From IMG/VR virus record IMGVR_UViG_3300028581_000013: a stretch of DNA of 64,000 nucleotides; one strand, written 5' to 3'. The stretch comes from a virus. Positions 13,214 to 47,935 of the stretch are shown here, piece after piece (position 1 is the first letter of the stretch; each line of letters opens with the position of its first letter). The notes under the pieces are model-generated. The model made no database searches, was not told the DNA's origin, and was given only the letters and a program-made list of their open reading frames with translations. Position numbers and translations under genes: made by a program.

Positions 13214-14925
13214 TTAAATTTGAAAAAGTCCGTTGGAAGAATTTTCTTTCAACAGGATTAAACTTTACTGAAATCAATCTAACCAAATCACCAAATACAC
13301 TTATCATTGGTAATAATGGTGCAGGTAAATCTACGATACTGGATGCCTTGTGTTTTGGTCTCTTTGGTAAACCATTTCGTAAAATCAATAAACCACAATT
13401 ACCAAATTCTATCAACCAAGCGGACTGCATTGTTGAGATTGAGTTTTCTATTGGTAAAAAACAATACAAAGTAATTCGAGGTATCAAACCAAATACATTT
13501 GAAGTGTATTGTAATGGCATAATGGTTGACCAAGATGCCAAAGCTAAAGACTATCAAGAACACTTAGAGAAGTTTATTCTCAAATTAAACTATAAATCAT
13601 TTACTCAAGTGGTAATTCTTGGTTCAGCTTCGTTTGTTCCGTTCATGCAATTATCACCAGCAGACCGTAGAGCCATTATTGAGGACTTACTAGACATTCA
13701 AATCTTTTCGTCTATGAATGGTGTGGTTAAAGAGAAAATGGCCACCATAAAAGATACCTCCACCAAAAACAAATATGAAATGGATTTGACATCTGAGAAG
13801 ATTAATTTTCAAAAACAAAGTATTGAAGAACACCGAAAACATAATGATGCCGAGATTGAAAAAAAACAAAAAGATATTACAGATTCAGAAAAACAGGTCA
13901 AGAAGTTGAACAAAGATATTGGATTGATTCAGAAACACATTGATGTGTTGAATAGTAAGATATCGGATCAAATGGCCATGCAAAAAAAGAGTGGCAAACT
14001 GGTTCAATTAGAATCTAAACTAGAATCTCGTTTAAAGAAGATTGAAAAAGAAGTTGGATTCTACCATGATAATAGTGATTGTCCCACTTGCAAACAAGGC
14101 ATAGAACAAGAATTTAGGGAACAACAAATTACCACACTAAACAACACCAAGGTTGAAGTTAATGATGCACTAACAGGTATAGCAAAACAGATTGCTGAAA
14201 CAAGTGATAGAATTGATGCCATACAGAAAATAATTCAACACATACAGGCACATAATAATGAAATAGTCAAACACAATTCTACTATTACAGCAGTAAATAG
14301 TTTTATTGGTAAATTACAAAATGAAATTAATGATTTATCTAATCGTAAAGATAACCTAGAAGAAGAAAATGCCAAACTAAGAGAACTCAGAACACATTTG
14401 GCTGAATTGATTACCAAACGAGAAGAACTATCTACAGAAAAACAATATTATGAATTTGCTGGCAACTTGTTAAAAGATACTGGTATTAAAACAAAGATTA
14501 TTCGCCAATACTTACCTATTATGAATAAACTAATTAATAAGTATTTGACAGCCATGGACTTCTTTGTGAACTTCAATATCAATGAATCGTTTGAAGAAAC
14601 AATTAAATCAAGGCACCGTGATGAATTTAGTTATGCCAACTTTTCAGAAGGTGAAAAAATGCGAATCGATTTGGCACTATTGTTTACATGGCGACAGATT
14701 GCCAAATTAAAGAATAGCACAAACACCAATCTATTGATTCTCGATGAGGTATTCGATTCTTCTTTAGATGGTGTTGGCACAGAAGAATTTTTAAAACTAA
14801 TTCATGAGATGGGCAACGATACAAACATATTTGTTATATCACATAAAGGTGACCAACTATTTGATAAGTTTAGGTCAATCATTAAATTTGAAAAGAAAAA
14901 CAATTTCAGTCAGGTGGCAAAATGA
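13210..14925 (+). CDS. gp46: Recombination ATPase gp46 (Rad50/SbcC-like)
   Basis: GNNGAGKS, CPTC zinc hook, FSEGEK, LDEVFD. Confidence 0.97.
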   Translation: MIKFEKVRWKNFLSTGLNFTEINLTKSPNTLIIGNNGAGKSTILDALCFGLFGKPFRKINKPQLPNSINQADCIVEIEFSIGKKQYKVIRGIKPNTFEVYCNGIMVDQDAKAKDYQEHLEKFILKLNYKSFTQVVILGSASFVPFMQLSPADRRAIIEDLLDIQIFSSMNGVVKEKMATIKDTSTKNKYEMDLTSEKINFQKQSIEEHRKHNDAEIEKKQKDITDSEKQVKKLNKDIGLIQKHIDVLNSKISDQMAMQKKSGKLVQLESKLESRLKKIEKEVGFYHDNSDCPTCKQGIEQEFREQQITTLNNTKVEVNDALTGIAKQIAETSDRIDAIQKIIQHIQAHNNEIVKHNSTITAVNSFIGKLQNEINDLSNRKDNLEEENAKLRELRTHLAELITKREELSTEKQYYEFAGNLLKDTGIKTKIIRQYLPIMNKLINKYLTAMDFFVNFNINESFEETIKSRHRDEFSYANFSEGEKMRIDLALLFTWRQIAKLKNSTNTNLLILDEVFDSSLDGVGTEEFLKLIHEMGNDTNIFVISHKGDQLFDKFRSIIKFEKKNNFSQVAK

Positions 14926-15467
14926 GTATATTAAGAGATTATACAAACGCTAAACATAGAGAAGCAGAAGCAAAACCATTTGTTCAGTACCTATTACATG
15001 GTAATATTACACCAGAACATTATGCTTTGTATTTAAAACAGATGTCGGTTATATATGGTGCAATAGAATATTTTGCAGAAATGTCTTTATTATTACTTGA
15101 TTTAAAGGACATAAAAAGAAAAGATTATATTTACGAAGATTTGTATGAACTTGGCCATACAACATTCGAACCTACGTTATCAGCAACAGAAAAATATAGA
15201 CAAAGGATAATTGATTTATATTATTTGGATAAGAAAAAAGATATCTTTGCTCATGTGTATGTTCGTCATATGGGTGATTTATATGGGGGTAAAGCAATTG
15301 CTAAACGAGTTCCTGGTTCTGGTAAAGCATATCAATTTGAAGATCGACCAGGATTAATCAAAGCAATTGATTCAAAATTGAGCTTAGATTTGGTCGATGA
15401 GGCTTTAATAGGTTTTGACCTTTCTATGGGTGTATTTGATGAATTGCAGGAGAAAATAAATGAGTGA
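14922..15467 (+). CDS. Heme oxygenase (biliverdin-producing family)
   Basis: N-terminal His (KHREAE) and HVYVRHMGDLYGG. Confidence 0.88.
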   Translation: MSILRDYTNAKHREAEAKPFVQYLLHGNITPEHYALYLKQMSVIYGAIEYFAEMSLLLLDLKDIKRKDYIYEDLYELGHTTFEPTLSATEKYRQRIIDLYYLDKKKDIFAHVYVRHMGDLYGGKAIAKRVPGSGKAYQFEDRPGLIKAIDSKLSLDLVDEALIGFDLSMGVFDELQEKINE

Positions 15468-16032
15468 AATTTTTAAGTATGATACAGAAGTAGCTTCCAA
15501 AGTTGAAGTAAAAAAACAACAATCGAAATATTTTAAATTGGTAAATGAAAACGATCCAATTTTAAAACAGGTATTACCACAATTTGATTTTAAAAATCCT
15601 CCCGTTAATCCAGAAGAATTTGTGGAGTCTTTAGCCGAAACCTGTAAACTTCATCGTGGTATTGGACTGTCAGCAAATCAATGTGGATTTTCATATCGTG
15701 TATTTGTAATGGGTGCCGGAGATGAATATGTGGCATATTTTAATCCTAAGATAACGGCAAAAACCGAAGAAGAAGTTCACATGATAGAAGGTTGTTTATC
15801 TTTTCCTTTTTTAGGTTTAAGGATTACCAGACCAAAAGAAATTATGGTTGAATACCAGAATTATCATGGAGAAATAAAACAGGCAAAATTTGATGGCATA
15901 TCTGCTCGTTGTTTTCAACATGAGCTTGACCACATGAATGGTATCGTGTATACTAGTCATACAAAGCCAATGGCTTTACAGTCAGGTATGAATAAAAGAA
16001 ATAAAATCATGAGAAAGTTGAAACTCAAATAA
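15460..16032 (+). CDS. def: Peptide deformylase
   Basis: GIGLSANQ, EGCLS, QHELDH motifs. Confidence 0.95.
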   Translation: MSEIFKYDTEVASKVEVKKQQSKYFKLVNENDPILKQVLPQFDFKNPPVNPEEFVESLAETCKLHRGIGLSANQCGFSYRVFVMGAGDEYVAYFNPKITAKTEEEVHMIEGCLSFPFLGLRITRPKEIMVEYQNYHGEIKQAKFDGISARCFQHELDHMNGIVYTSHTKPMALQSGMNKRNKIMRKLKLK

Positions 16033-17297
16033 TGGCAAGAGTAGAACCCGTAGAAACACAATGGAAAAGGTGGACAGAAAAAAATCCATCGGACCAGATT
16101 CGGCATATTGATAAAGAACAGTTAACAAAAACTGTTACTCAAGATTTAGAATATGCCTCTCAAATGGATGTTCGTGAATATACTTTATATCAAAAATGGT
16201 GTGAAGTAAAAGAAAGATATCCAGGCAAAGCTAGTGTGAATATGTTTGGTGATCCAGATATTTCTTGGGAAGATGATGCACAAGCAGCTATTATAAACAA
16301 AGTAAAAAACAATATTTGGGTTCCTAAAGATGTGGATGATTTTCAAAACCTAGAACCTCAAATGTATCTGGCTAATACTAATCGTGTTGATGAATGGAAT
16401 GCTATAAGAACATTTTCTTCTACAATGAAAAACAATTCTAATATTGGAAGAAATTTATATTACATTGTTAAAGATAAAAAAACGAATAAGTATCTTGGTG
16501 TTATCTGTATCTCATCAGACTTTTTAGATTTAACTCCTAGAGATAAAGCAATTGGCTGGTCCAGAGATGTGAAAACATCACAGAGTATGATTAACCACAC
16601 AGCAATAGGTTCAACAATTGTACCACTACAACCTCTTGGATATAATTACATGGGTGGTAAATTACTCGCATTATTATGTTTATCTGACAAAGTTCAAAAT
16701 GATTGGAAAGAAAGATATGGTGATGTTTTGGTAGGAGTTACAACCACTTCATTATATGGAAAAACTAAAGCGGGTGGTCTTTCTCAATATGACGGCCTCG
16801 AGCATTGGAATTCTATGGGATTCTCCTCTGGCTCTGTTGCCTTTGAACCAACAAAACAAACCAAACAGTTGATTTTTGATTGGATAAAAGAAAACCATAC
16901 TCGCAAATATTTTGAATGGTGGGAAGCAAAGAATCCACAAGGATTGCCACTCAAACGAGATCACAAAAATCGTTCATTACATTTTGCTTATCCAAAACTT
17001 GGTATATCAAAAGACAAAACTAGAACAGAACACCAACGTGGTATATATTTTAGTTATCTCTATAATAACACTTGTGAATTTTTACGAAAAGAAATTACAG
17101 AAGATAAACTGGTAAAGTCGTTTGATACCAGTGAAGAAGCGTTAACAAACATCTGGAAAACAAAGTATGCCAAAGGTCGTATTCGGCAACTACAAAAGAA
17201 AAACAATGTTTCATATGAAACACTTTTCTATGATGATTTGATTTATTTAACTTGGGAAGAAACCAAGGCAAAGTATTTGCCACAAGTTGGCAGATAA
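16032..17297 (+). CDS. DUF4338/DruA-like protein, paralog 1
   Basis: QPLGYNYMGGKLLA and TTTSLYG..SQYDG motifs shared with 37923..39032; family assignment from recall. Confidence 0.6.
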   Translation: MARVEPVETQWKRWTEKNPSDQIRHIDKEQLTKTVTQDLEYASQMDVREYTLYQKWCEVKERYPGKASVNMFGDPDISWEDDAQAAIINKVKNNIWVPKDVDDFQNLEPQMYLANTNRVDEWNAIRTFSSTMKNNSNIGRNLYYIVKDKKTNKYLGVICISSDFLDLTPRDKAIGWSRDVKTSQSMINHTAIGSTIVPLQPLGYNYMGGKLLALLCLSDKVQNDWKERYGDVLVGVTTTSLYGKTKAGGLSQYDGLEHWNSMGFSSGSVAFEPTKQTKQLIFDWIKENHTRKYFEWWEAKNPQGLPLKRDHKNRSLHFAYPKLGISKDKTRTEHQRGIYFSYLYNNTCEFLRKEITEDKLVKSFDTSEEALTNIWKTKYAKGRIRQLQKKNNVSYETLFYDDLIYLTWEETKAKYLPQVGR

Positions 17298-24896: not shown

Positions 24897-25433
24897 ATGC
24901 AACTCAGTATAATCGGATGTCCCGATAAGAAACGCTTTCGACCTTTTGTTAAGCGTGCGGCTATTTTTTATGCCGGACAACTGATGACACCTAAAATGAT
25001 AGAAAACATTAGTGTCCGTATTAAGTTTGATCCAAAACTTGATGCTCTTGGATATGCAGAAGTATTGGATTATAATGATAGCAATAAACCTAGAGAGTTT
25101 CAGATTGAAATAAATCCTTTATGTGGTTCACATGATATATTGGAAACTATAGCACACGAAATGGTTCATGTTAAACAATATGTGTATGGCGAAACCAATG
25201 AATATGGTACACGATGGAGAGGTCAAAGAATTACCGAAAATATGGATTATTATGATGAGCCATGGGAAATAGAAGCACACGGGTTATCCACAGGATTGTT
25301 TACCAAATTTGCTATCAAAGAAAAATTATGGGAAGTGTTTAGTGATGTTCGTAATCCGGATGCACCACTCAAACCAGAACCAATAGCATGGTTAAATATA
25401 CCACAAATAAGTGTTGACAATCACACTATATAA
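24897..25433 (+). CDS. Putative zinc metallopeptidase (HExxH)
   Basis: AHEMVHVKQY...PWEIEA. Confidence 0.7.
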   Translation: MQLSIIGCPDKKRFRPFVKRAAIFYAGQLMTPKMIENISVRIKFDPKLDALGYAEVLDYNDSNKPREFQIEINPLCGSHDILETIAHEMVHVKQYVYGETNEYGTRWRGQRITENMDYYDEPWEIEAHGLSTGLFTKFAIKEKLWEVFSDVRNPDAPLKPEPIAWLNIPQISVDNHTI

Positions 25434-25442
25434 TGTTATAGT
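25414..25442 (+). promoter_or_regulatory. Sigma70 early promoter for the atypical tRNA-Gly
   Basis: TTGACA-17 nt-TATAGT with TGn, 9 nt before the tRNA. Confidence 0.8.
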
Positions 25443-25451: not shown

Positions 25452-25521
25452 GCGGTCGGGGTATAGAACCAGAGTAGGTGTCCAACTTACTCATCTAGTG
25501 CGAATCTAGACCACCGCTCCA
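25452..25521 (+). tRNA. Atypical tRNA-Gly(UCC)-like RNA, 70 nt
   Basis: Acceptor GCGGTCG/CCACCGC, U73, encoded CCA; anticodon loop TG-TCC-AA; T-arm TCTAG-TGCGAAT-CTAGA; minimal D-arm. Confidence 0.75.
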
Positions 25522-25541: not shown

Positions 25542-25715
25542 ATGGCAGTTTCAAAATCAAAAAAGAAAAATCCAATGTTGACTAAAAATGGCAAGCCAAG
25601 ATTAGGTCCATTAAATCTTAAACAGCTTAATGATATGTTAGAAAAATCTAGTAGACCAAAAGATAAAGCTAAGATTCAAAAACGCATCACCGAATTGGCT
25701 GCACGGCCCCTTTAG
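25542..25715 (+). CDS. Small basic hypothetical protein (57 aa, not in ORF track)
   Basis: AAGGA RBS; MAVSKSKKKNPM...ELAARPL*; stop lies inside the tRNA-Thr 5' end. Confidence 0.55.
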   Translation: MAVSKSKKKNPMLTKNGKPRLGPLNLKQLNDMLEKSSRPKDKAKIQKRITELAARPL

Positions 25716-25779
25716 TTAAATGGTATAACGCTAGATTTGTAATCTTGAATTGTTAGTTCGATTCTATCAAGGGGCACCA
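25706..25779 (+). tRNA. tRNA-Thr(UGU)
   Basis: GCCCCTT/AAGGGGC-A-CCA, anticodon loop TT-TGT-AA, TTCGATT T-loop. Confidence 0.9.
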
Positions 25780-26372
25780 TTAGGAGGATTCATAAAATTT
25801 TCAATTAAAGTTGTAACATCACCATATTGATAATCTTCAAGCATTTCGATGACAATATCAACAATTTGAATTTGTCTTATGAAATTTTGTAATTCGTTTT
25901 CATGGTTCTTTAATTGATTTTCGGCAAACATTTTTAACATATTTTCACCTTGCTCATTTTTCTTTTTAATTTTTTTGATTATTTTTTTTAATCTGAATAT
26001 GTAACCATTACAAGTATTAATGTTATTGTTTATGTTTAGTTTTTCTCGCCTACTTTCATTTTTCATAATCAGTATTAGATCATCAAGATCGGGATTAATG
26101 TTTGGAAGTAAATTGAAAAATAACCGACTAAGTTGTTCTAGAGCTTGATCACGGAGACTTGTACCAGATTCGTAATGACCGGTGGTGTCGTATTTTTTTC
26201 TGTTAACGGGATCACTTAAAACTTCATAGGCGTTTTTTATTTCCTTGAATATTTCAGGATCGCCGCCTTTGTCTGGATGATGTTGTTGAGCGAGTGATTT
26301 ATATTTGGCTTTAATTTCTTCAAATGTTGCATTTTTAGAAACGCCTAAGATATCATATAGATTTTTATTCAT
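25767..26372 (-). CDS. J-domain (DnaJ-like) protein
   Basis: LYDILGV..HHPDKGGD..AYEVLSD..RKKYD; probable start MNKN at 26372. Confidence 0.88.
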   Translation of the reverse strand: MNKNLYDILGVSKNATFEEIKAKYKSLAQQHHPDKGGDPEIFKEIKNAYEVLSDPVNRKKYDTTGHYESGTSLRDQALEQLSRLFFNLLPNINPDLDDLILIMKNESRREKLNINNNINTCNGYIFRLKKIIKKIKKKNEQGENMLKMFAENQLKNHENELQNFIRQIQIVDIVIEMLEDYQYGDVTTLIENFMNPPNGAP

Positions 26373-26377
26373 ACATG

Positions 26378-26385
26378 TATTTATA
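26378..26385 (-). promoter_or_regulatory. Late promoter for the J-domain gene
   Basis: TATAAATA on minus strand, 5 nt before ATG. Confidence 0.6.
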
Positions 26386-27099
26386 ATGAGTTCCATACCT
26401 AAAATTGCACACGTTGCTTGGAAGACTAAAGATGTGTTCGACAGTAAATCACCACTCATTGTCAATGGTTTGCGCAAACTAATTGATTTGAATCCTGACT
26501 GGACTGTTACAGTACATGATGATAATGATGTGGATGAATATCTAAGAAATGTTTTAAATAAAAGAGATTACAATTTAATTAAAGATATACATATAGTTGA
26601 AAAAACTGATTTATGGAGGCTCTTTAAATTATACAATGAAGGTGGTCTTTACATTGACATTGACCGTTTTTGTAATATACCATTGTCAGCAATTATAACA
26701 GATGGTATAAAGTGTGTATTACCAACTTGTTTGGAGTGGGATTTTTCACAAGACTTTATGTTGACTGAACCTAAAAATCCAATTCAAGCAAAAACAATTG
26801 AATTGATATTACAGAGGCGGTATGAAGGACATAAGAATGTTTTCTTTTTAGGTCCACAAACATACATGCACGCCGTAACAACAGTATTATTTGGTGAAAT
26901 GATTAACACGGATCCTGGTGTTGAGAAGTTTGATGAGATGCGTAAGTATATGGAACAAATTCCGTTTATTAAAACATACAGGGAACATCCACCCCACAAT
27001 ACAATAATTTATAAAGGTGATGGTGTTCTGGACTGGGAAAAATTAAAAAAAGAATTTTATGCTGAGGCCAATATAAAACATTGGTCTGGTGAATGGTAA
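26386..27099 (+). CDS. DxD glycosyltransferase (GT32/OCH1-like)
   Basis: IPKIAH..W, DLWRL..LYNEGGLYIDID, LGP. Confidence 0.8.
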   Translation: MSSIPKIAHVAWKTKDVFDSKSPLIVNGLRKLIDLNPDWTVTVHDDNDVDEYLRNVLNKRDYNLIKDIHIVEKTDLWRLFKLYNEGGLYIDIDRFCNIPLSAIITDGIKCVLPTCLEWDFSQDFMLTEPKNPIQAKTIELILQRRYEGHKNVFFLGPQTYMHAVTTVLFGEMINTDPGVEKFDEMRKYMEQIPFIKTYREHPPHNTIIYKGDGVLDWEKLKKEFYAEANIKHWSGEW

Positions 27100-27100
27100 T

Positions 27101-27814
27101 ATGAAAACAATAACACTACCTAGATTACTACAACCTTATTACTGTTCCGACCTTGTTAGAGTTGGTAAAAATAATGATGGTGGTTATCTTTTAAATAAAA
27201 ATGATATATTGAAAAGTGAATGTTTATTATCCTTTGGCATCAATGATGACTGGTCTTTTGAGGATCAATTTCTTAAAATTAAAGATTGTCCTTTATTTGG
27301 TTATGATAATTCCGTAAATGATGTTATGTTAAAAGATAAAGGATTGTATGAATCTCATAAAGAATTTTTTACTGGTACAAAACAACACATAACGAAAAAC
27401 ATAGGTAAAAATAATACATCCGATGAAATCACTTTTGAATCTGTTTTAGAAAATAAAGGTAAAAATATTTTTTTAAAGTGTGATATTGAAGGTTCTGAAT
27501 ATAAGATTTTAGACAATATACTCACACACACAAAATTGTTTTCTGGTATTGTGATTGAATTTCATGATATACAAGATAATTTTAACTTGAATGAAATGGC
27601 TAATTTTATTAGTAAATTGGATCAAAAATTAGTTCATGTACATATAAACAATTATTCTTATATGCAAATTGATGAAAATCAATATATACCTTCAGTTGTT
27701 GAATTGTCTTTTACTTCATCAGATAATATAAAATTAAAAAAACATATTAATTTTCCAAATTCTTTAGACATGCCAAATTGTCCAGAAAGAGAAGATTTTA
27801 CCATAATATTTTGA
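27101..27814 (+). CDS. FkbM-like SAM methyltransferase
   Basis: RVGKNNDGGY, SFGINDDWSFE, LKCDIEGSEY, IEFH, HVHINN. Confidence 0.75.
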   Translation: MKTITLPRLLQPYYCSDLVRVGKNNDGGYLLNKNDILKSECLLSFGINDDWSFEDQFLKIKDCPLFGYDNSVNDVMLKDKGLYESHKEFFTGTKQHITKNIGKNNTSDEITFESVLENKGKNIFLKCDIEGSEYKILDNILTHTKLFSGIVIEFHDIQDNFNLNEMANFISKLDQKLVHVHINNYSYMQIDENQYIPSVVELSFTSSDNIKLKKHINFPNSLDMPNCPEREDFTIIF

Positions 27815-28136: not shown

Positions 28137-28300
28137 CATCCGATTTAGAGAAGTATCGTCAACAAGCTTTAGAGTTATGGTTTAATAATGGAGGTTCATG
28201 CACTGGTGCACAGCCACCTGAACCAAAAGATATTGATGATGCAATAGCTGAAGATGAAGAATTTAAACGAATAGGAAAATTAAATGATTCAAATCACTGA
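28133..28300 (+). CDS. Small hypothetical protein (55 aa)
   Basis: ATGA overlap with previous ORF. Confidence 0.45.
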
Positions 28301-28607
28301 TAGTGCAATAAACAAAGTAAGAGATTTATTGGTAGAAGAAAAATTACCAAATGGTGCATTACGAATGTTTGTGCAAGGTGGTGGATGTTCTGGTTATCAA
28401 TACGGATTTACATTTGATGAGGAAGTTGCAGAAGATGATTTTGTCATTGAGAATGAAGGTATCAAAGTAATTGTTGATATGATATCATCTCAATATCTAC
28501 AAGGCGCAACATTAGACTATAAAGAGGAAAAGTTTAATTCACAATTTGTAATTATTAATCCAAATGCTAAATCTACTTGTGGATGTGGTTCTTCATTTAA
28601 CGCTTAG
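28284..28607 (+). CDS. erpA: Fe-S cluster insertion protein (ErpA/IscA family)
   Basis: GGGCSGYQY and [14 protein letters not shown]. Confidence 0.93.
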
Positions 28608-29300
28608 TTTGGCTAATCTGAATTTTTCTAATAGTTTAATATAGAACCAACCTGCATCTATTTCAAACCATTTCCTACTAAGCTTGGCGGAACCAGCATC
28701 AGCATGGTGATTATTATGAAGCTCTTCGCCACCAATAATAAGACCAATAGGGAAAACATTTCTAGATGATTCTCTTGTTTCGACATTTCTATACCCCCAA
28801 TAGTGGCCGATTCCATTGACTACACCAGCAGCCCAAAACGGAATCCATATCATTTGAATTCCCCAAGTTAATAATCCCCACCACGAAAAACAAAGTAAAT
28901 TTATTAGCAATAACAAAGTAATTCCTAGACGGGAATGTTTGCTGTAAAGGTTTTTCTCTAACCAATCATCTGGTGTTCCTCTGCCAAACGAATTAACCAT
29001 CAATTCATCCTTGGATGCTGTGTTATATAATAAAGCTCCGCCAAATAAAACTTTCCATATACCAAATAATTGAGGTGAATGTGGATCACCTTTTTGGTCA
29101 GTCATACTGTGATGCTTACGGTGAATAGCCACCCATTGTTTTGTGACCATACCTGTGGTCATCCACAACCAAAAACGAAAGAAATGATTTACTGCTGGAT
29201 GAAATGTAACCGATAAGTGAGTTTGACTACGGTGTAGATATAGAGTTACGGCGATGATTGTTAGATGAGTTGTTACTAGGACATAAATTAGTTCGTTCAT
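28593..29300 (-). CDS. Membrane fatty acid desaturase (delta-9 type)
   Basis: His boxes HRSQTH, HRKHH, HNNHH; DPHSP. Confidence 0.92.
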
Positions 29301-36578: not shown

Positions 36579-37926
36579 GGAATATTTACGAAAAGTTTTA
36601 CCATTTTTAAAGACAGAATATTTTAGTGATAATGTAGAGAGAACATTATTTAATGAAATTACATCATTCACGGAGACTTACAATAACACGGCAACGATTG
36701 AAGCACTTAGTATTGCCGTCAAAGAAAAGAGAAATCTTACAGCTGATGAAGTTCAGAGATGCGAGGACTATCTTCTCGAAATTGAAAAGATTAAGTCTAC
36801 AGAAACCGAGGTTCAATGGCTTGTTGATAAGACCGAAAAATTCTGTCAAGAGAAGGCCATATATAACGCAGTATTGGGGTCTATTTCGATTCTCGATGGC
36901 AAAGATAAAAATCACGACAAAGGCCAGATTCCCAAGATATTATCGGACGCTTTAGCAGTAAGTTTTGATAACTCCGTTGGCCATGACTACTTACAGGACT
37001 CAGATGCTCGATATGAATTCTATCACAGAAAAGAGGAACGAATCCCATTCGACCTCGATTACTTTAACAAGATCACAAAAGGTGGTTTACCAGCTAAGAC
37101 GCTTAACATTGCTTTGGCGGGGACTGGTGTTGGTAAATCTCTTTTTATGTGTCATGTGGCTGCTTCGTGCATGGTTCAGGGTAAAAATGTCCTTTACATC
37201 ACTTTGGAAATGAGTGAAGAAAAGATTGCAGAACGAATTGATGCCAATCTATTGAATGTTACTATTGATGATTTGATTGAGTTACCAAAAGATATGTATG
37301 ATAAAAAAGTTAATCGTGTCCGTGAAAAGACTACAGGCAAACTTATTATCAAAGAATATCCAACCGCTTCAGCATCAACTATTCATTTTAGGACACTATT
37401 AAATGAACTTAATCTCAAGAGGTCTTTTGTACCTGACATTATATTTGTTGACTATCTCAATATTTGTTGTTCTGCTCGTATTAAGGCTGGCGCAAATATT
37501 AATTCCTACACCTACGTTAAAGCAATTGCAGAAGAATTACGTGGCCTTGCTGTTGAGTATAATGTTCCTATTGTATCTGCTACACAAACTACCCGCTCAG
37601 GATTTACTTCCAGTGATCCGGGACTTGAGGATACGAGTGAGTCGTTCGGACTTCCCGCCACCGCAGACTTGATGTTCGCTTTGATTTCTTCTGAAGAACT
37701 AGAAGAACTTGGTCAGATTATGGTTAAACAATTGAAGAATCGATATAATGATCCAACATTCCACAAACGATTTACTCTTGGTGTTGATAGATCCAAAATG
37801 AAACTATATGATGTTGAACAGGCTGCACAAATGGGTATCGCAGATGCTGGCCACGATAAGCCTTTGAACACATTTGGTACCAGAGAAGATAGACCAAAGA
37901 AATCATTTAGTGGATTTAAAGTATGA
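36535..37926 (+). CDS. gp41: Replicative helicase gp41
   Basis: AGTGVGKS, LEMSEE, VDYLNI, ATQTTR, SESFGLPATAD, QLKNRY. Confidence 0.97.
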   Translation: MKLEQTILKNLVYNEEYLRKVLPFLKTEYFSDNVERTLFNEITSFTETYNNTATIEALSIAVKEKRNLTADEVQRCEDYLLEIEKIKSTETEVQWLVDKTEKFCQEKAIYNAVLGSISILDGKDKNHDKGQIPKILSDALAVSFDNSVGHDYLQDSDARYEFYHRKEERIPFDLDYFNKITKGGLPAKTLNIALAGTGVGKSLFMCHVAASCMVQGKNVLYITLEMSEEKIAERIDANLLNVTIDDLIELPKDMYDKKVNRVREKTTGKLIIKEYPTASASTIHFRTLLNELNLKRSFVPDIIFVDYLNICCSARIKAGANINSYTYVKAIAEELRGLAVEYNVPIVSATQTTRSGFTSSDPGLEDTSESFGLPATADLMFALISSEELEELGQIMVKQLKNRYNDPTFHKRFTLGVDRSKMKLYDVEQAAQMGIADAGHDKPLNTFGTREDRPKKSFSGFKV

Positions 37927-39032
37927 TGATCAATAGGGATCAGGCACTTCATTGTGCTGGTGTATTTAAAGATTACTTTAGTAACATTGGAAGTACCGAA
38001 GAATACATGCGTGATGAGAAACTGAAGAATGTGGCTGATATGCCATCTTCTTTATTTCCAATTGAAGATGATTTATTCTCCGATTTCACAATGCACCCAA
38101 AAGATATGGATATTGAAGTGTGTGAAATACCAAACGATGTTTGGGAACCTTTACTTGCCATTACCAGTTCACACATCAATAAAGCACCAGTTGGTAAGAA
38201 TATTCAATTGGCAGTCAAAGAAAGAAACTCAGGAAAGATTCTAGGATTCATTCGTTTGGGTTCACCAGTAATCTATATGAAACCTCGTAATGACTACCTA
38301 GGACAAGTTTGGATTCAAAATGAAGATACTGCCAAGCGGTTCAATACGGCTTGTGTTATGGGTTTCGTAATTGTACCATCTCAACCATTTGGTTTTAATT
38401 ATCTAGGCGGTAAACTTTTATCTGCCATTTGTGCCAGTCATACCGTAAGAGAAATCTGTAATAAAAAATACGATATGAATATCTGCTTGTTTGAAACTAC
38501 CAGTTTATATGGAAGTACCAAATCGGTTTCACAATATGATGGCATGAAACCTTACATTCGTTTTAAAGGCTTAACAGAATCAGATATTGTGCCAATGATG
38601 CACGGCCAAAGATATACTGATTTGAAAAAATACGTGGAGGATATTACTGGTGATTTATTGGGTGGAGATACTTCAACAACGAGTAGAAAACTCAGAACAT
38701 TCACTAAGATTATTGCTCTCACCAAAGCTGCTTTAAAAGGAACACCTGAAGGAGATGCTTTCTCTTTAACGATTGACAATGCCAAAAAGTTGACAGAAAA
38801 GAAACGATATTATATTTCTGATTATGGATTTAAAAATACTGTTGATTACATGAATTGTAAGACCGACAAACTTTTACCTGGTGAAAATTACAAGAAACAT
38901 GAACTATCAAATGTAATCGAATGGTGGCGGAGTAAAGCTATAAATAGATATGAAACCCTTAAAGCTGAGGGTAGATTACGAACAGAACTTGAAGTATGGA
39001 CTTCAGGTAAAGACATTCAAATTATTAGGTAA
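37923..39032 (+). CDS. DUF4338/DruA-like protein, paralog 2
   Basis: QPFGFNYLGGKLLS and ETTSLYG..SQYDG; ATGA-coupled to gp41. Confidence 0.6.
   Translation: MMINRDQALHCAGVFKDYFSNIGSTEEYMRDEKLKNVADMPSSLFPIEDDLFSDFTMHPKDMDIEVCEIPNDVWEPLLAITSSHINKAPVGKNIQLAVKERNSGKILGFIRLGSPVIYMKPRNDYLGQVWIQNEDTAKRFNTACVMGFVIVPSQPFGFNYLGGKLLSAICASHTVREICNKKYDMNICLFETTSLYGSTKSVSQYDGMKPYIRFKGLTESDIVPMMHGQRYTDLKKYVEDITGDLLGGDTSTTSRKLRTFTKIIALTKAALKGTPEGDAFSLTIDNAKKLTEKKRYYISDYGFKNTVDYMNCKTDKLLPGENYKKHELSNVIEWWRSKAINRYETLKAEGRLRTELEVWTSGKDIQIIR
38939..38946 (+). promoter_or_regulatory. Late promoter inside the 3' end of the upstream gene
   Basis: TATAAATA 90 nt before ORF 39036. Confidence 0.5.
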
Positions 39033-41060: not shown

Positions 41061-41774
41061 ATGTCTGCTACTGTGATTATACCAACCACTGGATCACCAG
41101 AGGTCAAAACTGCCGTTGAATCTGTTTTAAATCAAAGCCATCCTACTGATTGTTATGTTGTCATTGATGGTGACCAATATATGGACAAAACACTGGAGGC
41201 GTTGGGTTCAGCTGTTGATGACACACGAGTTCATATCTGTGCTTTACCAATCAATGTAGGTGCCAAAGGATTTTATGGCCACCGTGTCTATGCCGCTTTC
41301 ACTCATCTAGTCAATACAGAGTACATTGCTTATCTTGACCAAGATAATTGGTTATATCGGTCACATGTAGAAAACTGTATCAAAACAATTAACACAAGAA
41401 GTTTAGATTGGTGTTATTCTTTACGCCAAGTGTATAACAAACAAGGTAAGTTTGTTTGTTTTGATGACTGTGAATCGTTAGGTATTTGGCCAACATACCA
41501 CGGAGTTCATCACATAGATACTAATTGTTACTTCATTAAAACGGAAGTAGCAAATAAAATTGCAAGTGTTTGGCATGGTGGTTGGGGTCAAGATAGAGTA
41601 TTTCTACAAGCAATCACAAAACACTTTCCCAAATTCTATTGCACAAGTGAATATACAACCTGTTATAGAGTAGATGGTGGTAAAGGTTCTGTTACAGCAG
41701 AATTCTTTGAAAATGGTAATAAAGTAATGAATGAAAAATATAATGGAGAATACCCATGGCGGAAAAAAGCTTAA
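41061..41774 (+). CDS. Glycosyltransferase family 2
   Basis: TVIIPT, VIDG, YLDQDNW. Confidence 0.85.
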   Translation: MSATVIIPTTGSPEVKTAVESVLNQSHPTDCYVVIDGDQYMDKTLEALGSAVDDTRVHICALPINVGAKGFYGHRVYAAFTHLVNTEYIAYLDQDNWLYRSHVENCIKTINTRSLDWCYSLRQVYNKQGKFVCFDDCESLGIWPTYHGVHHIDTNCYFIKTEVANKIASVWHGGWGQDRVFLQAITKHFPKFYCTSEYTTCYRVDGGKGSVTAEFFENGNKVMNEKYNGEYPWRKKA

Positions 41775-42607
41775 TAATTGGTGCTATAACCAACTATGAT
41801 TTCGATAAGGTTGCACCTTGGGTAAAATCAATTAATGAAACTGGTTTTGTTGGTGATAAGATAATGGTTGTTTTTAATTCGACATTAGAAACAGTTGAAA
41901 AACTTGTTCAACACGATTTCAAAGTTGTTGTGGTTGGCCAAGAAGATAAAGAAAACAAAAGATTTGTACACCAATCACATCTACCAATTCATGTAGAAAG
42001 ATTCTTTCACATTTATAACATTTTAAAAGATAATTGGGAATTCTATGACTATGTTATTACAACAGATGTTAAAGACATTATCTTTCAAAGTAATCCAGTG
42101 GATTGGTTAAAAGATAATTTAAACGACAAGAAATTGGTTGCTGGTTCAGAGGCCATTCAATACATGCATGAGCCTTGGGGTAATCAAAATCTACTAGAAA
42201 CTTATGGCCAATATTTTTACGACCAATTTAAAGATTGTGAAATCTATAATGTAGGAACACTAGGTGGTGAATCTGAATATATGAAAGATTTGTGTTTAAA
42301 TATATTCTTGTCTGCTATTAATCGTCCAATACCAATTGTTGACCAAGCTGTATTTAATGTACTGATACAGACCTTGCCATTTAGAGATGTTATTCATTTT
42401 GCAAGACAACGAGATGGTTGGGCTTGTCAAGCAGGCACAACAGTTGATCCATCTAAAATAGAATCTTTTAGACCACATTTACTAGAAGAAGAACCAGATT
42501 TTATTGATGGTTATGTTTATACATCCACAGGAAAAAAGTTTTGTATTGTTCACCAATACGACCGGGTTCCTGAATGGAGAAAAATTATCGAGGCGAGATA
42601 CAAATGA
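41756..42607 (+). CDS. Putative GT-A glycosyltransferase
   Basis: TTDVKDIIFQSNP, NVG, DQAVFN, HQYDR. Confidence 0.65.
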   Translation: MAEKSLIIGAITNYDFDKVAPWVKSINETGFVGDKIMVVFNSTLETVEKLVQHDFKVVVVGQEDKENKRFVHQSHLPIHVERFFHIYNILKDNWEFYDYVITTDVKDIIFQSNPVDWLKDNLNDKKLVAGSEAIQYMHEPWGNQNLLETYGQYFYDQFKDCEIYNVGTLGGESEYMKDLCLNIFLSAINRPIPIVDQAVFNVLIQTLPFRDVIHFARQRDGWACQAGTTVDPSKIESFRPHLLEEEPDFIDGYVYTSTGKKFCIVHQYDRVPEWRKIIEARYK

Positions 42608-43605
42608 AAATTTTTATAACAGGATTAGCAGGATTCTTGGGCAGCCATTTGGCCGACAGAATGATAGAACTTGGCCATGAAGTTATTGGTAATGATACAC
42701 TCATTGGTGGTTATGTTGACAATGTACCAATCAAAGCAAAGCTATATGTGGTCGATTGTTGTAAGGTTGATGAGATGGCACAGATTATGAAAGGTTGTGA
42801 TATTGTAATACACACAGCTGCCACAGCACATGAAGGTCTTTCAGTTTTTAGTCCAAGTTTTATTACTCGAAATATATTTGAAGCTTCTGTAGCTACAATC
42901 TCTGCGGCAATTCAAAATAAAGTAAAACGATTCGTATACTGCACTTCAATGGCACGATACGGTGACCAAAATACTCCGTTTACTGAAGATATGAAACCAA
43001 GACCAGTTGATCCATATGGTATTGCCAAAGTTGCTGGTGAAGAAGTTTTAAAAGCTCTAGGTGAAACACATAACATGCAATGGAACATTGCTGTACCTCA
43101 CAACATTGTGGGACCAAGGCAGAGATATGATGATCCTTTCCGTAATGTAATGAGTATTATGATTAATAGAAATCTACAAGGTAAACCATCTATTATTTAC
43201 GGAGATGGTTTACAAACAAGATGTTTTTCTTATATTGATGATTGCATTTCTTGTTTAGAGAAAATGGCACTTGATCCTAACTTGACACATCAAATTATCA
43301 ATATTGGTCCCGATGAAGGAACAATTACAGTAAAAGAAATGTCAAAAATGGTTGCTGAAGAATGTGGATTTGAAGGAGAACCAATACATATGCCAGATCG
43401 GCCAAGAGAAGTCAAACACGCATCTTGTTCTGCTGATAAAGCAAGACGCTTATTGAATTATGAAACAAAGACGGATTTGAAAACGTCAATCAAAAAAACC
43501 GTGGACTATATCAAACAAAAAGGAACAAAACAATTCGATTATTCTTATCCATTGGAAATTATCTCAGATAAAACTCCAGCAACATGGAAAGATAGGTTGA
43601 TGTAA
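42604..43605 (+). CDS. NAD-dependent nucleotide-sugar epimerase/dehydratase
   Basis: ITGLAGFLGSH, YGIAK, HNIVGP, GDGLQTRCFSYIDD. Confidence 0.93.
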   Translation: MKIFITGLAGFLGSHLADRMIELGHEVIGNDTLIGGYVDNVPIKAKLYVVDCCKVDEMAQIMKGCDIVIHTAATAHEGLSVFSPSFITRNIFEASVATISAAIQNKVKRFVYCTSMARYGDQNTPFTEDMKPRPVDPYGIAKVAGEEVLKALGETHNMQWNIAVPHNIVGPRQRYDDPFRNVMSIMINRNLQGKPSIIYGDGLQTRCFSYIDDCISCLEKMALDPNLTHQIINIGPDEGTITVKEMSKMVAEECGFEGEPIHMPDRPREVKHASCSADKARRLLNYETKTDLKTSIKKTVDYIKQKGTKQFDYSYPLEIISDKTPATWKDRLM

Positions 43606-44327
43606 TGGCGACAATAGGTTTCTTTAACTGTGTTTCAACACAACCAAAAGCTACAGAACATTCTATACAATCAATACGAAAGTTTCATCCAGATAGTTTC
43701 TTTATGATTGCTTGTGATGCAGGTCCAGATTATTATACATTATGTAAAGAGTATAATATCGAATATTATCATTCACAGAAAAGTTTAAGTTATCCGGTTC
43801 AACCATATGGTTACAGAAAAGAAAAAATATTGGAATGGTTGAGTAGATTCTATATCGCTTGTATTAAAACCAACACAACACATTTGATGATGGTTGAAGA
43901 TGATGTGGTATTGATTAAACCAGTAACGGTTGAGGATGATTGGGAGGTATCTGGTCATGCAACAACTCATGCAAATCTATTTCATCCAGAATTTACAAAG
44001 ATGATACACGAATATTCTGGAGTTTATCCTGATGTTCAAGGTTATGGTGCTGGTGGTGGTTCGATATTCAAAGTAAAAACATTTATAGACAATTACTTTG
44101 GCATTGTAGAATTTATTGATAAAAATGCTGACTACATACAAGATAACTTCTATCCTACGATGGGTTGGATGGATTGTTATATGACATACTACTATTTGTT
44201 GTGTGGTAAAAAATATACGAACAATCCTCACTTGTTCAACATTTGGCCAACAGATAAAAATTATGATATTAATAATGTGCCATCTGAAATGGAAATAGTT
44301 CACAACTATAAGAATTATTATGTATGA
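43605..44327 (+). CDS. Putative glycosyltransferase
   Basis: MMVEDDV, GGSIF; lies in glycan cluster. Confidence 0.55.
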   Translation: MATIGFFNCVSTQPKATEHSIQSIRKFHPDSFFMIACDAGPDYYTLCKEYNIEYYHSQKSLSYPVQPYGYRKEKILEWLSRFYIACIKTNTTHLMMVEDDVVLIKPVTVEDDWEVSGHATTHANLFHPEFTKMIHEYSGVYPDVQGYGAGGGSIFKVKTFIDNYFGIVEFIDKNADYIQDNFYPTMGWMDCYMTYYYLLCGKKYTNNPHLFNIWPTDKNYDINNVPSEMEIVHNYKNYYV

Positions 44328-44955
44328 AAATTATAAGGTAGTATCTCCAGGCCATCTGTTTCAAATTAGAACTGGTCCTGGCCCCGATTATAGTGAAACA
44401 TATTCCAAAACAAGATATGATTTATATCCGACAACGGATAAAATGTCGCAGTTGAGATATTCTATAATTGAATCAAATATTGGCCGTGTCAATTCAATTT
44501 GTGACTTTGGTTATGGTAACGGAAGTTTTTTAAAATATTGCCACATAGAAGGACGCAAAACTTTTGGTTACGATATATCTAACTATCAATTACCATCTTA
44601 CGTTACTAAGGTAGATAATCCAGACAATGTTGAAGTTGATGTAATGACTTTTTTCGACTCACTAGAACATTTAGATGTGGAAGATTTGACACCAATTCTC
44701 AAAGCAAAGAAAACAAAATATTTTGTTATTTCTGTTCCTTGGTATCACGAATCATGTGGAAAAGAATGGTTTATGAATTGGAAACACCGTAGAGAGAATG
44801 AACACTTCCACCATTTTGATTGTAATGGACTGACAAAATTATTAGTTGATGCTGGTTGTAAGATAATTCATGTGTGTAACGATGAAGATAAAATTAGAAC
44901 TCCTTTTAGTGACTTACCAAATATTTTAACGATTGTGGCAAAAAAGAATGATTGA
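44320..44955 (+). CDS. Class I SAM methyltransferase, paralog A
   Basis: CDFGYGNG, FFDSLEH, ISVPW, EHFHHF. Confidence 0.8.
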   Translation: MYENYKVVSPGHLFQIRTGPGPDYSETYSKTRYDLYPTTDKMSQLRYSIIESNIGRVNSICDFGYGNGSFLKYCHIEGRKTFGYDISNYQLPSYVTKVDNPDNVEVDVMTFFDSLEHLDVEDLTPILKAKKTKYFVISVPWYHESCGKEWFMNWKHRRENEHFHHFDCNGLTKLLVDAGCKIIHVCNDEDKIRTPFSDLPNILTIVAKKND

Positions 44956-45571
44956 TAATTATGAAATGATTGAACCTGGTCATTGGTTTCAAAAGAAACA
45001 AACTGGTGAGATTATGAAGTACGATACTCGATACATGGAGTATTATACAAAAATGAATCTTGCTATGTCAAAATTAAGATTTGATTTATTGGATCGATAT
45101 ACAGACTTTGATTCTATTTGTGATTTTGGTTATGGTGATGGTAAGTTTTTAGAATATTGTAAACACCAGAATGTGTCGAAGTGTTACGGCCATGATATAT
45201 CCAATTTCCCATTACCACAAGGTGTTGAATTTGTACCAGATGTAACCAAACAGCAATTTGATGCCATTACCTTTTTCGATTCAATCGAACATATACCACA
45301 ACCAAACGTCCATGAGTTGCTGGCCTCTTTACAAACCAAATATATTATGATATCATTACCTTGGATGCATGAAGTAATGGGACCTGAATGGTTTAAAACA
45401 TGGAAACACAGAAAAGAAAATGAACATTTCCATCATTTTGATGTTCATGGATTGATTAAGTTGATGCAAAAATCAGGATTCACACCAATACATATATGCA
45501 ACCATGAAGATGAAATTCGTAAACCTGTATCGAATCTTCCAAATATTTTAACTATTATTGCTAAAAAATGA
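44948..45571 (+). CDS. Class I SAM methyltransferase, paralog B
   Basis: CDFGYGDG, FFDSIEH, ISLPW, EHFHHF. Confidence 0.8.
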   Translation: MIDNYEMIEPGHWFQKKQTGEIMKYDTRYMEYYTKMNLAMSKLRFDLLDRYTDFDSICDFGYGDGKFLEYCKHQNVSKCYGHDISNFPLPQGVEFVPDVTKQQFDAITFFDSIEHIPQPNVHELLASLQTKYIMISLPWMHEVMGPEWFKTWKHRKENEHFHHFDVHGLIKLMQKSGFTPIHICNHEDEIRKPVSNLPNILTIIAKK

Positions 45572-46356
45572 ATGATATCACAATCGTAACTGCTTTCTTT
45601 GATATTGGTCGTGGTGATTGGACGCCAGACAAAGGATTGCCACATTATTTACAACGAACAACCAAAACTTATTTGCAAAGATTTAGTCATCTAGCAAAAT
45701 TAGAAAATCCCATGGTCGTATACACATCTAAAGATATGGTAAAAGAAATAGAATATCTAAGGCAAGATAGACCAACACAAATATTAACTCTTGATTTTCA
45801 AAAAAACTTTAAAAAATTGAGAGAAGAAATTACCAGTGTTCAAAAAAATATTGAATATCAAAGTAAAATAAATCCCATGCAAGTAAAAAATCCAGAATAT
45901 TGGAATGCTGACTACGTTCTCGTTAATGCTTTAAAATCGTCTTTTGTTAGTAGGTCTTTGGATCTTATCAAAACCGATTTAATTGCTTGGCTAGATTTTG
46001 GTTATTGTAGAAGTGAATCAACATTGAATGGTGTTAAAAACTGGAAATATTCTTTTGATAAGAATAAAATACATTTCTTTAACATTAAAGAATGGACAGA
46101 AGGAACATACATCCAAGACGTTATTGCCAATAATGACGTACACATTACTGGTCCTTGTATCGTCGCAGGCCGAGAAATGTGGCCAAAATTGGAAGCCATG
46201 GTGCACCATAGTATTAATGAACTTATAAAAAATAATTTAATTGATGACGACCAAACATTATTGTTGATGTCTTATCTGATGAAACCGGAATTGTTTGAAT
46301 TACATCCTGTTTCTAATACAGATTGGTTCATCGTTTTTAAGGAATTTAGTGAATGA
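45568..46356 (+). CDS. HtrL/YibB (WlaTC) family glycosyltransferase-like protein
   Basis: TIVTAFFDIGRGDW, AWLDFGY, DDDQTLLL. Confidence 0.8.
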   Translation: MNDITIVTAFFDIGRGDWTPDKGLPHYLQRTTKTYLQRFSHLAKLENPMVVYTSKDMVKEIEYLRQDRPTQILTLDFQKNFKKLREEITSVQKNIEYQSKINPMQVKNPEYWNADYVLVNALKSSFVSRSLDLIKTDLIAWLDFGYCRSESTLNGVKNWKYSFDKNKIHFFNIKEWTEGTYIQDVIANNDVHITGPCIVAGREMWPKLEAMVHHSINELIKNNLIDDDQTLLLMSYLMKPELFELHPVSNTDWFIVFKEFSE

Positions 46357-47105
46357 AAATATTTCTATCAGGAACATCTAACTTAGGTGACTTTCTAAAT
46401 GGCATGCCAGTATTATCTGGTATCAATAAATCATACGGAAAGATTGATTTAATTATACGACCAGAAATGTCCAAGTTTAAAGGCATCAAGCAATTCTTAT
46501 CTTATCAAGATATATTTTCTGATGTTAACTTTGCAAATGAAGTTTTTGTGTATGGTAATATTACTCACATGAGTAGTTGGCCAATTCGTGAAGATAAAGG
46601 TAATCCTAATCGACCAATAGAAACTTGTCGATATGAAAATTTCATGAAGGACAATTACAATTTAAATTTTGAAGTCGATGATGATTTCACAGTAAAAACA
46701 CCAGAGTGTGATATTGCTGTAAAAGATACTTATTATGTTGGTGACCGTTGGTCTGTAGGTGACATTGATGACCGTAGAGCTACACACACATTAAGTCATT
46801 TGAAAGATTGTGAATTCATTGATTATAATAATGACCTATTAACGAATGCTTATATCATCAAAAATAGTACCAAACCAATCATTACAAGTCTGTCGGGAGT
46901 TTCTGTATTGACCGATTTATTGAATAAAGATGGTTACGTGGTTTGGAAAGCAGAAGATTGGGACATACAGTTTAGAAATGGTGATGACATTTCTTGGGAC
47001 AATGGAAAAAATATTAATACAATTTTCGAAAAGCATTATTACTTGAATAGAAAAATGAAACTGGTACACCAAAACAAATTGGAAGAAATATTAAATGGTC
47101 ATTAA
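46353..47105 (+). CDS. Putative GT-B (GT9-like) glycosyltransferase
   Basis: NLGDFLNGMPVL N-terminus, SG motif. Confidence 0.45.
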   Translation: MKIFLSGTSNLGDFLNGMPVLSGINKSYGKIDLIIRPEMSKFKGIKQFLSYQDIFSDVNFANEVFVYGNITHMSSWPIREDKGNPNRPIETCRYENFMKDNYNLNFEVDDDFTVKTPECDIAVKDTYYVGDRWSVGDIDDRRATHTLSHLKDCEFIDYNNDLLTNAYIIKNSTKPIITSLSGVSVLTDLLNKDGYVVWKAEDWDIQFRNGDDISWDNGKNINTIFEKHYYLNRKMKLVHQNKLEEILNGH

Positions 47106-47799: not shown

Positions 47800-47871
47800 A
47801 ATCCAACATTTTTGATGACTATGTATCAAACCCAATCTTTCTATGGTTTGGCCATGGGAGGTCAAATGTTG

Positions 47872-47879
47872 TATAAATA
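47872..47879 (+). promoter_or_regulatory. T4-type late promoter
   Basis: Intergenic TATAAATA before the internal-protein cluster. Confidence 0.8.
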
Positions 47880-47935
47880 ATCAAACCGAAGTCGTATTTT
47901 GCAACCATAGTGTGTTGCGTTCTAGAAGGAAATTA

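Follow-up and report, generated by a model that had tools for sequence, protein, structure and literature searches.

A mini tRNA-Gly paralog in T4-like phages: glycine identity retained, decoding features lost, and a DruA-family protein as candidate partner

Dedicated non-translating tRNAs have so far been known from staphylococcal cell-wall synthesis. In Staphylococcus aureus and S. epidermidis, the non-proteogenic (NP) tRNA-Gly species NP1-NP3 serve as glycyl donors for FmhB, FemA, and FemB; these species carry UGC in the T loop, bind poorly to EF-Tu and to the ribosome, and feed a GNAT-fold transferase, and the NP lineage is present only in staphylococci (PMC7826273). A tRNA-dependent modification of DNA was shown for phage Mu as recently as 2026: Mu Mom (PF25680; structure 8bv8) is a GNAT that moves glycine from Gly-tRNAGly to the N6 of adenine in double-stranded DNA, can use any tRNA-Gly isoacceptor, and seems to recognize the 3' end of the tRNA (PMC13219725). 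The present analysis concerns a 70-nucleotide (nt) element, a mini tRNA-Gly, within a stretch of 64,000 nt of viral DNA (IMG/VR virus record IMGVR_UViG_3300028581_000013; the whole stretch is called the window below). The reading preferred here, to which a probability of roughly 0.5 is given, is that this element is a chargeable, non-decoding glycyl carrier serving a GNAT-fold protein of the DruA family that is encoded in the same window.

Re-reading of the sequence confirmed the 70-nt cloverleaf-like RNA that an initial annotation had described on the plus strand (Table 1). Its acceptor stem pairs GCGG... with ...CCGC and is followed by U73 and an encoded CCA; the 7-pair stem, the discriminator base, and the CCA end are thus all present, with one C bulged or mismatched. 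The D arm is a hairpin of 3 base pairs (bp), GGU/ACC, with the loop AUAGA and no GG. The anticodon arm has a 7-bp stem (GAGUAGG/CUUACUC) and the loop U-G-UCC-A-A, which places G at position 33; the T arm has a 5-bp stem (TCTAG/CTAGA) and the loop UGCGAAU, in which GUGC replaces GUUC; a variable loop is absent. Position 8 is G, and the D arm is too short for position 14 to be numbered in the standard way. The replacement of U33, the lack of U8, the short D stem without GG, and the altered T loop, all claimed at the outset, are therefore borne out. The two remaining structural claims, a 7-bp anticodon stem and a C:C mismatch in the acceptor, hold on one reading of the sequence; the minimum-free-energy fold, also a cloverleaf, adds a U-A pair to give an 8-bp anticodon stem with the 5-nt loop GUCCA, and shows C6 as a bulge rather than as part of a mismatch. 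The sequence alone is compatible with both versions. The fold energy is -25.5 kcal/mol, compared with -16.1 +/- 2.9 in shuffled sequences (z -3.2), and 0 of 200 shuffles were as good.

As had been anticipated, tRNA finders do not recognize this RNA. ARAGORN calls only tRNA-Met, tRNA-Thr, and tRNA-Met in the window, and the Rfam tRNA model RF00005 does not match the element at its gathering score or at E<=10. (The Rfam matches to the element at E<=10, a PutA thermometer and mir-374, are at chance level and were rejected.) A blastn search of the locus against cultured phages returned matches to the tRNA-Thr only. Because it is invisible to the standard tRNA finders, the RNA is missing from phage annotations. 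It is nevertheless preceded by the strong promoter of its own that the initial annotation had noted, a sigma-70-type sequence that ranks second best in an 8-kb scan, with 9 nt between the end of its -10 hexamer and G1 of the element. This promoter is kept ahead of both type A elements, to which the window copy belongs, and type B elements in related loci.

The related contigs used in this work are IMG/VR viral contigs. Directly upstream of the element lies a gene for a WLM/SprT-like HExxH protein, which has 570 relatives in IMG/VR, and a blastn search past this gene found the element in about 25 loci and in two forms, which differ over most of their length and have their ends, promoter, and position in common. 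A covariance model (R1) built from 24 sequences detects the element at 45-79 bits in 40 of 81 sources, of which one is the window and 39 are loci. Five long related contigs, among them a complete genome of 174.5 kb and a 157-kb genome that is 94% complete, have one copy apiece, and the element is kept across divergence to about 49% identity in the neighbouring protein. (It should be noted that negative results with R1 are weak, because R1 with its default filters misses 63-nt type C copies, which were found by regular expression, and also missed a copy in Pelagibacter phage HTVC008M that a pattern search later found.) When 28 distinct sequences are fitted to the model, which biases the alignment toward pairing, 93% of pair cells hold standard pairs versus 72% in shuffled sequences and 35-52% when partners are slid. 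Both partners vary in 18 of the 22 pairs of this alignment; in the anticodon stem, pairing reaches 99% and each of the 8 pairs shows compensatory change. The covariation among phage homologs that had been proposed as a check is also seen with RNAalifold on a plain MAFFT alignment, independent of R1, where 10 of 17 pairs show compensatory changes. The element is almost certainly a functional RNA derived from tRNA-Gly.

The positions that do not vary are informative. The bacterial glycine identity set consists of U73, G1-C72, C2-G71, C35, and C36 (PMC9976931), and the element retains all of it. G1-C72, C2-G71, U73, and CCA are found in 28/28 of the distinct sequences, as is C36, and C35 is found in 27/28, the sole exception being an alignment gap; G4 and its partner, the G53-C61 pair, and G at T-loop position 55 are likewise invariant. 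Since the constant positions coincide with the published identity set, selection appears to keep what the glycyl-tRNA synthetase (GlyRS) reads. The features used in decoding drift meanwhile. In the same sequences position 33 is G, U, or C and position 34 is U, A, or C. When 51 distinct variants of 63-70 nt are folded, the apical loop measures 4-5 nt throughout (GUCCA in 15, CCCA in 9, UACCC in 6, CCCC in 5, UUCCC in 4, and CACCC in 3) and is closed by a G-C pair in some of them; it contains CC in about 46 of the 51, and loop size and both side arms drift. The element has no canonical 7-nt anticodon loop with U33, and its D loop AUAGA and T loop UGCGAAU lack what is required for a G18G19/T54-Psi55-C56 elbow. 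Judged by these comparisons, what the ribosome needs, U33, the 7-nt loop, and the G18G19/Psi55 elbow, seems to have been let go.

The genomic context suggests that the mini RNA is not needed for decoding, in that it coexists with both canonical isoacceptors in three relatives: G003, G004, and G005 each hold a tRNA-Gly(UCC), a tRNA-Gly(GCC), and the mini RNA. In the 64-kb window and in partial contigs of its clade (55-68% complete), the mini RNA is the only tRNA-Gly. The arm lengths of type A are still predicted to sum to a normal L shape, with layers of 7+5 and 3+7, which would fit a protein that reads both ends of the molecule. The initial annotation saw in the element an RNA built to be charged but not translated. 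By comparison this idea is well supported, through the covariation, the coexistence with canonical tRNA-Gly, and an identity set that is kept while decoding features drift; charging and exclusion themselves are predictions, and that the element is both charged and kept out of translation is considered likely, though well short of certain.

The origin of the element can be traced within the phages themselves. R1 also matches canonical phage tRNA-Gly(UCC) genes, at 34-40 bits, and in the model alignment the acceptor is the same and the anticodon stem-loop nearly so (canonical gene UUUCCAA, type A UGUCCAA). The two also occur side by side. In loci L084 and L085 a tRNA-Gly(UCC) is followed after 7 nt by the element, and tandems in either order are present in L025-29, L050, L063, and L080. 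From these matches, the similar stem-loop, and the tandem arrangement, it is concluded on sequence grounds that the element arose by tandem duplication of the phage tRNA-Gly(UCC) and is its paralog. Even at E<=1, the Rfam tRNA model misses the reduced copies of L084 and L085.

Such an origin separates the element from the NP lineage, which, being confined to staphylococci, has no place for a gene that arose in a phage from its tRNA-Gly(UCC). The likeness between the two is nonetheless considerable, since both are extra tRNA-Gly(UCC) paralogs that keep the GlyRS determinants, have UGC for UUC in the T loop, and show altered D and T arms. The initial annotation had drawn this parallel from the loss of GTPsiC and of the D-loop GG; for the T loop it stands, given the UGC and weak EF-Tu binding of the NP species (PMC7826273). 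The staphylococcal genes, however, are full-size chromosomal cloverleaves, whereas the element is virus-encoded, measures 63-70 nt across its family, lacks a variable loop, and is reduced to a D hairpin of 3 bp and a loop of 4-5 nt; and unlike the NP hosts, the hosts of the nearest cultured relatives of these phages are Gram-negative SAR11 bacteria. No member of the FemAB family was matched among the roughly 53 window open reading frames (ORFs) scanned with Pfam, which are a part of all ORFs, and none of the L/F-transferase, MprF, or cyclodipeptide-synthase families was found among the ORFs scanned.

What the window does encode is two proteins of the DruA family (PF14236, formerly DUF4338), a long and a short paralog. 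Both pass the curated cut-off of 27 bits for PF14236, and both fall in phrog_19197 (the short form at 4e-129). DruA-long, the candidate partner, lies 8,155 nt upstream of the element on the same strand. Its AlphaFold2 (AF2) model, built from 44 sequences, has a predicted local distance difference test score of 92.1 and a GNAT-fold core at about residues 103-365. Foldseek with this model returned GNAT folds only, with weak E-values, all >0.01; as far as the model goes, the GNAT fold is secure. When the Foldseek candidates were compared by VIA-align, Mom (8bv8) came first with Z 9.8, a root-mean-square deviation (rmsd) of 4.1, and 186 residues aligned, and a comparison with 48,161 representative chains also put it in first place (Z 9.6, 168 residues aligned, rmsd 3.9). 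Next came generic GNATs at Z 9.0-9.3 with about 147 residues aligned, and FemA scored Z 8.1. At these margins the case for Mom as the nearest structural neighbour of DruA-long is only suggestive.

Mom and DruA-long are alike in being phage GNAT-fold enzymes, by prediction in the case of DruA-long, and Mom is the top solved match in both searches, with the longest alignment among single-domain GNATs (186 and 168). In addition, the features that Mom reads lie at the 3' end of tRNA-Gly, the part that the element conserves. The two systems differ in that Mom uses the ordinary tRNA-Gly isoacceptors of the host and brings no RNA of its own, whereas the element is phage-encoded; moreover, Mom has 241 amino acids (aa) compared with 421 for DruA-long, the two fall in different Pfam families, and neither sequence nor profile comparison relates them. 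The other described system to which DruA-long can be compared is the anti-phage system type I Druantia, whose DruA belongs to PF14236, the family whose cut-off both window proteins pass. Unlike the genes of Druantia, the window DruA genes stand in a phage replication module without DruB-E. A literature search turned up no published function for DruA, no description of this RNA, and no connection of DruA/DUF4338 with tRNA. A DruA-family homolog in Synechococcus phage S-SCSM2R (PQ898602.1 134003-134350) bears 'methylcarbamoylase mom' as a depositor label only.

Less reduced relatives of the element occur in two cultured Pelagibacter phages. HTVC008M has an unannotated 74-nt tRNA-Gly gene (NC_020484.1 91140-91213; L108:1501-1574, +) between cobS and the gene for S21, with the anticodon ACC, the T loop AGCGUUA, and a D loop without GG; this gene is accepted by both ARAGORN and Rfam (49.5 bits), and a published survey gives the phage 0 tRNAs (PMC7029224). 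The 74-nt version in Mosig (MT647606.1 7779-7852; L106:1501-1574, -) also has ACC, together with the T loop GGCAGUA and a promoter of its own. It is missed by ARAGORN and Rfam, and it is overlapped by an annotated 96-nt coding sequence, Mosig_000011 ('hypothetical protein'), which is probably spurious. To our knowledge, ACC is not a glycine anticodon in bacteria. Like the element, each of the two genes has GCGG...CCGCUCCA ends, a non-canonical T loop, a D loop lacking GG, and CC at positions 35-36, but unlike the element they have 74 nt, a 7-nt loop with U33, a 5-bp anticodon stem, and a variable loop. By sequence, the HTVC008M and Mosig forms look like intermediate stages of the same specialization. 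Both genomes contain a DruA-long gene 53-58% identical to that of the window. Another intermediate form is a 75-nt tRNA-Gly(UCC)-like gene at L186:1405-1479, 3.5 kb upstream of DruA-long, with G33 (loop CGUCCAG), the T loop UGCAAGU, and a D loop without GG.

The distribution of the RNA and that of DruA-long were compared. All five of the long contigs that bear the element hold both DruA paralogs, and the phages Cr30, Melnitz, DLP_6, and phiM12 have neither a DruA gene nor the RNA, as judged by R1, which is weak for negatives. S-CREM1 has the short paralog only, and the RNA was not found in it by R1 or by pattern; because the short form occurs in this cyanophage without the element, the link of the short paralog to the RNA is the weaker one. 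For DruA-long, a sample of 80 IMG/VR loci with relatives 57-84% identical was examined. R1 placed the RNA 25-65 nt past the DruA stop codon in 7 of the 80, and reading of sister loci revealed a 63-nt form that R1 had missed. A pattern search then located a mini tRNA-Gly 3-62 nt past the DruA-long stop codon in 24/83 assessable loci, and in two further loci at 545 and 763 nt. The DruA-adjacent copies that were read have their own TTGACA/TATAAT promoter, and in L153 and L154 the sequence just past the RNA resembles a stem followed by a T run, with no attached mRNA. In a quick DruA tree the linked loci fall in one clade of 30 rows (24+2 of 28 assessable), within which the DruA-adjacent site is occupied by different RNA types: the 63-nt type C, a type A in L168 that is 91% identical to the window's, a type B-like form in L167, and several others. 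The RNA and DruA-long are 6.5 kb apart in Mosig and 3.9 kb apart in HTVC008M, within the same early region as in the window. On this evidence from gene order, the linkage is real but partly phylogenetic. A separate observation is that in L160 the DruA-long gene is immediately followed by a tandem pair of unlike mini tRNA-Gly genes with 6 nt between them (L160:3736-3879).

In the scheme proposed here, the element would be transcribed early from its own sigma-70 promoter, its short leader would be trimmed by RNase P, and it would then be charged with glycine by the host GlyRS, since it keeps the full bacterial glycine identity set. Four changes would keep it out of translation: the closing of the anticodon loop to 4-5 nt, the loss of U33, a rebuilt D/T elbow, and the absence of a variable loop. 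The resulting Gly-RNA would act as a private glycyl carrier for the GNAT acyltransferase predicted in DruA-long, in parallel with the role of Gly-tRNAGly as co-substrate of Mu Mom and that of staphylococcal NP tRNA-Gly as Fem donors, and the acceptor of the glycine would be DNA, a protein, or a small molecule. The chance that DruA-long is the user of the RNA is put at close to even; DNA as the target of the transfer is rather doubtful. A broader version of the scheme is tentative, and unlikely as it stands: a two-part phage system in which a glycyl carrier of the phage's own, charged by host GlyRS and invisible to EF-Tu and the ribosome, would allow a GNAT to attach glycine to phage DNA, or to some other target, as protection from host nucleases and would not compete with translation; in that case the whole DruA/DUF4338 family, including Druantia DruA, would be aminoacyl-tRNA-dependent transferases.

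Several observations weigh against a carrier role for the element with DruA-long as its enzyme. Mom leads the generic GNATs by less than 1 Z unit, a difference that amounts to a tie by the standard of the tool. At the level of sequence, DruA-long matches only PF14236 at E<=0.1 and not PF25680, the Mom family, on which Mu Mom itself scores 253 bits; hhalign of DruA-long with Mu Mom gives a probability of 1%, with an insignificant 13-column match near RGVYF/RGVYL; and searches of PDB sequences with phmmer and two profiles found nothing. DruA-like genes also occur in the cyanophages S-8S55, S-PRM1, S-SM2, and S-CREM1, where neither R1 nor a GCGG...CCGCTCCA pattern detected the element, and the distant DruA contigs P0147 and P0171 (10-13 kb) contain no tRNA or element. 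In the window itself 8.2 kb separate the RNA from DruA-long, and, because tight adjacency is concentrated in one DruA clade, part of the association may reflect shared ancestry. As for charging, C35 and C36 would have to be read by a bacterial GlyRS in a loop of 4-5 nt, and the conserved acceptor end could instead reflect the needs of RNase P or of the CCA-adding enzyme, or could have been kept by gene conversion with a neighbouring tRNA-Gly.

Other functions for the RNA can be weighed on the same evidence. A charged or tRNA-Gly-shaped RNA could serve as a decoy or sponge that soaks up a host defence factor and so spares the translating pool, the candidates being TacT/AtaT2-type toxins, GNATs that recognize U73 and G71 and acetylate Gly-tRNAGly, or an anticodon or acceptor nuclease. 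The invariance of U73 and G71, the published determinants of TacT (PMC9976931), would suit this, as would a strong early-type promoter and the retention of the RNA even beside canonical tRNA-Gly genes. The tight 4-5-nt loop bears on the idea in both directions, in that it would resist cleavage of the anticodon loop, but if the RNA were a decoy for an anticodon nuclease, one would expect the normal 7-nt loop to persist. A decoy also leaves the repeated tight linkage to a phage GNAT gene unexplained, unless the enzyme is part of the conflict, and we know of no tRNA-Gly-directed defence in SAR11-type hosts; such a role is judged distinctly improbable. The same judgement, of a poor chance, is made for an uncharged tRNA-like RNA that would work as an RNase P/RNase Z processing signal, punctuating and stabilizing an early transcript with the 57-aa ORF and tRNA-Thr downstream, or as the ligand of a tRNA-binding protein with no requirement for aminoacylation. 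The element does come first, at the 5' end, in what is probably a polycistronic unit, no terminator having been found ahead of the tRNA-Thr, and its best conserved part, the acceptor-T minihelix with NCCA, is what RNase P recognizes. However, a processing signal has no need of the CC in the distal loop, which is conserved though the rest of that arm is replaced; adjoining canonical tRNAs would punctuate the transcript anyway; and elsewhere among the phages the RNA stands by itself behind a promoter of its own, with no attached mRNA in L153 and L154.

That the element is a decoding tRNA-Gly of mitochondrion-like architecture, reading GGA and GGG, is very improbable. Its arm lengths compensate one another (acceptor 7 and T 5 make 12 layers, D 3 and anticodon stem 7 make 10), its type A loop departs from the canonical phage loop UUUCCAA at position 33 only, and the window clade shows no canonical tRNA-Gly in the DNA at hand, which consists of partial contigs. 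Against this stand the variation at position 33 (G, C, or U), the occurrence of A at position 34, the closing of the 4-5-nt loops by Watson-Crick pairs, which in some variants are G-C, the loss of the G18G19/Psi55 elbow, and the failure of either tRNA finder to accept the element, together with the three genomes in which both canonical isoacceptors accompany it. Its rejection by tRNA finders would also be expected of a decaying tRNA-Gly pseudogene without function, but this has a close to negligible probability given compensatory changes in 18/22 pairs, a conserved promoter, and a copy in every long relative, retained down to about 49% identity of the neighbouring protein; the view of the initial annotation that the RNA is not a product of decay is upheld on these points.

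If the proposal of a glycyl carrier for DruA-long is correct, a virus-borne, stripped-down, chargeable tRNA cofactor would represent a new phage route into host aminoacylation that is insulated from translation, and it would provide the first functional handle on DruA/DUF4338. With lengths of 74, 70, 67, and 63 nt, the variants form a natural minimization series, and this series shows which parts GlyRS, RNase P, and the partner enzyme may need. Because both the less reduced form and the enzyme are present in the cultured phages Mosig and HTVC008M, the idea is testable at the bench.

The window is part of a freshwater T4-like phage, with a GC content of about 34%. It encodes gp46/47-like proteins, gp45, gp44, gp62, RegA, Hsp20, a dCMP deaminase, a family-B DNA polymerase that is about 50% identical to cyanomyovirus polymerases, UvsX, a gp41-like helicase, and a ribonucleotide reductase. 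For one marker gene, the best cultured matches are in the Pelagibacter phages Mosig (58.5%) and HTVC008M (53%), and the window also encodes a fatty-acid desaturase, a trait reported for the freshwater SAR11 'fonsimyophages' (PMC7029224). From these matches, the desaturase trait, and the context genes, the host is probably a SAR11/LD12-type bacterium. Past the element, the 57-aa ORF, the start region of which is kept in the window clade, is probably co-transcribed with it, to judge from the layout of the locus; its TAG stop falls within the D arm of the tRNA-Thr, the next gene on the strand, and no terminator-like site was found in a search between the element and that tRNA. Pfam and PHROG searches with the 57-aa ORF gave no match. 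Ribosomal protein S21, the gene for which follows the tRNA-Gly of HTVC008M, was considered for this ORF and ruled out by search.

Table 1. Positions in the window of the mini tRNA-Gly, its promoter, and associated genes
Feature	Position	Strand	Support
DruA-family (PF14236) long paralog, 421 aa; candidate partner	16032..17297	+	71.5 bits
Sigma-70-type promoter, TTGACA-17-TATAGT with extended -10 TG	25414..25442	+	11/12 consensus positions
Mini tRNA-Gly(UCC) paralog, type A, 70 nt	25452..25521	+	Sequence, fold, R1 model (75.9 bits)
Basic 57-aa ORF with AAGGA ribosome-binding site, 22 nt past the element	25542..25715	+	
Canonical tRNA-Thr(UGU)	25706..25779	+	ARAGORN, Rfam
DruA-family short paralog, 369 aa, directly after the gp41-like helicase	37923..39032	+	34.2 bits

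Some further features of these phages were noted in passing. ARAGORN calls a 'tRNA-Ile(tat)' of 91-93 nt in many related phages (L042, L044 at 4886-4977, L045, L047, L052, L066, L067, L068, and L078); it is unusually long, with the anticodon at position 31-34, and could contain an intron or a long extra arm or be an aberrant tRNA. At 14922-16032, 28284-28607, and 28593-29300 (-), the window has auxiliary metabolic genes, for a heme oxygenase, a peptide deformylase, an IscA-like Fe-S assembly protein, and the fatty-acid desaturase. A DXD glycosyltransferase and an FkbM methyltransferase are encoded at 26305-27814, and farther from the element, at 41061-50888, there is a run of genes of sugar/lipopolysaccharide type, comprising a GT2 glycosyltransferase, an NAD-dependent epimerase/dehydratase, two Methyltransf_23 proteins, HtrL_YibB, DUF6267, and a cytidylyltransferase-like protein.

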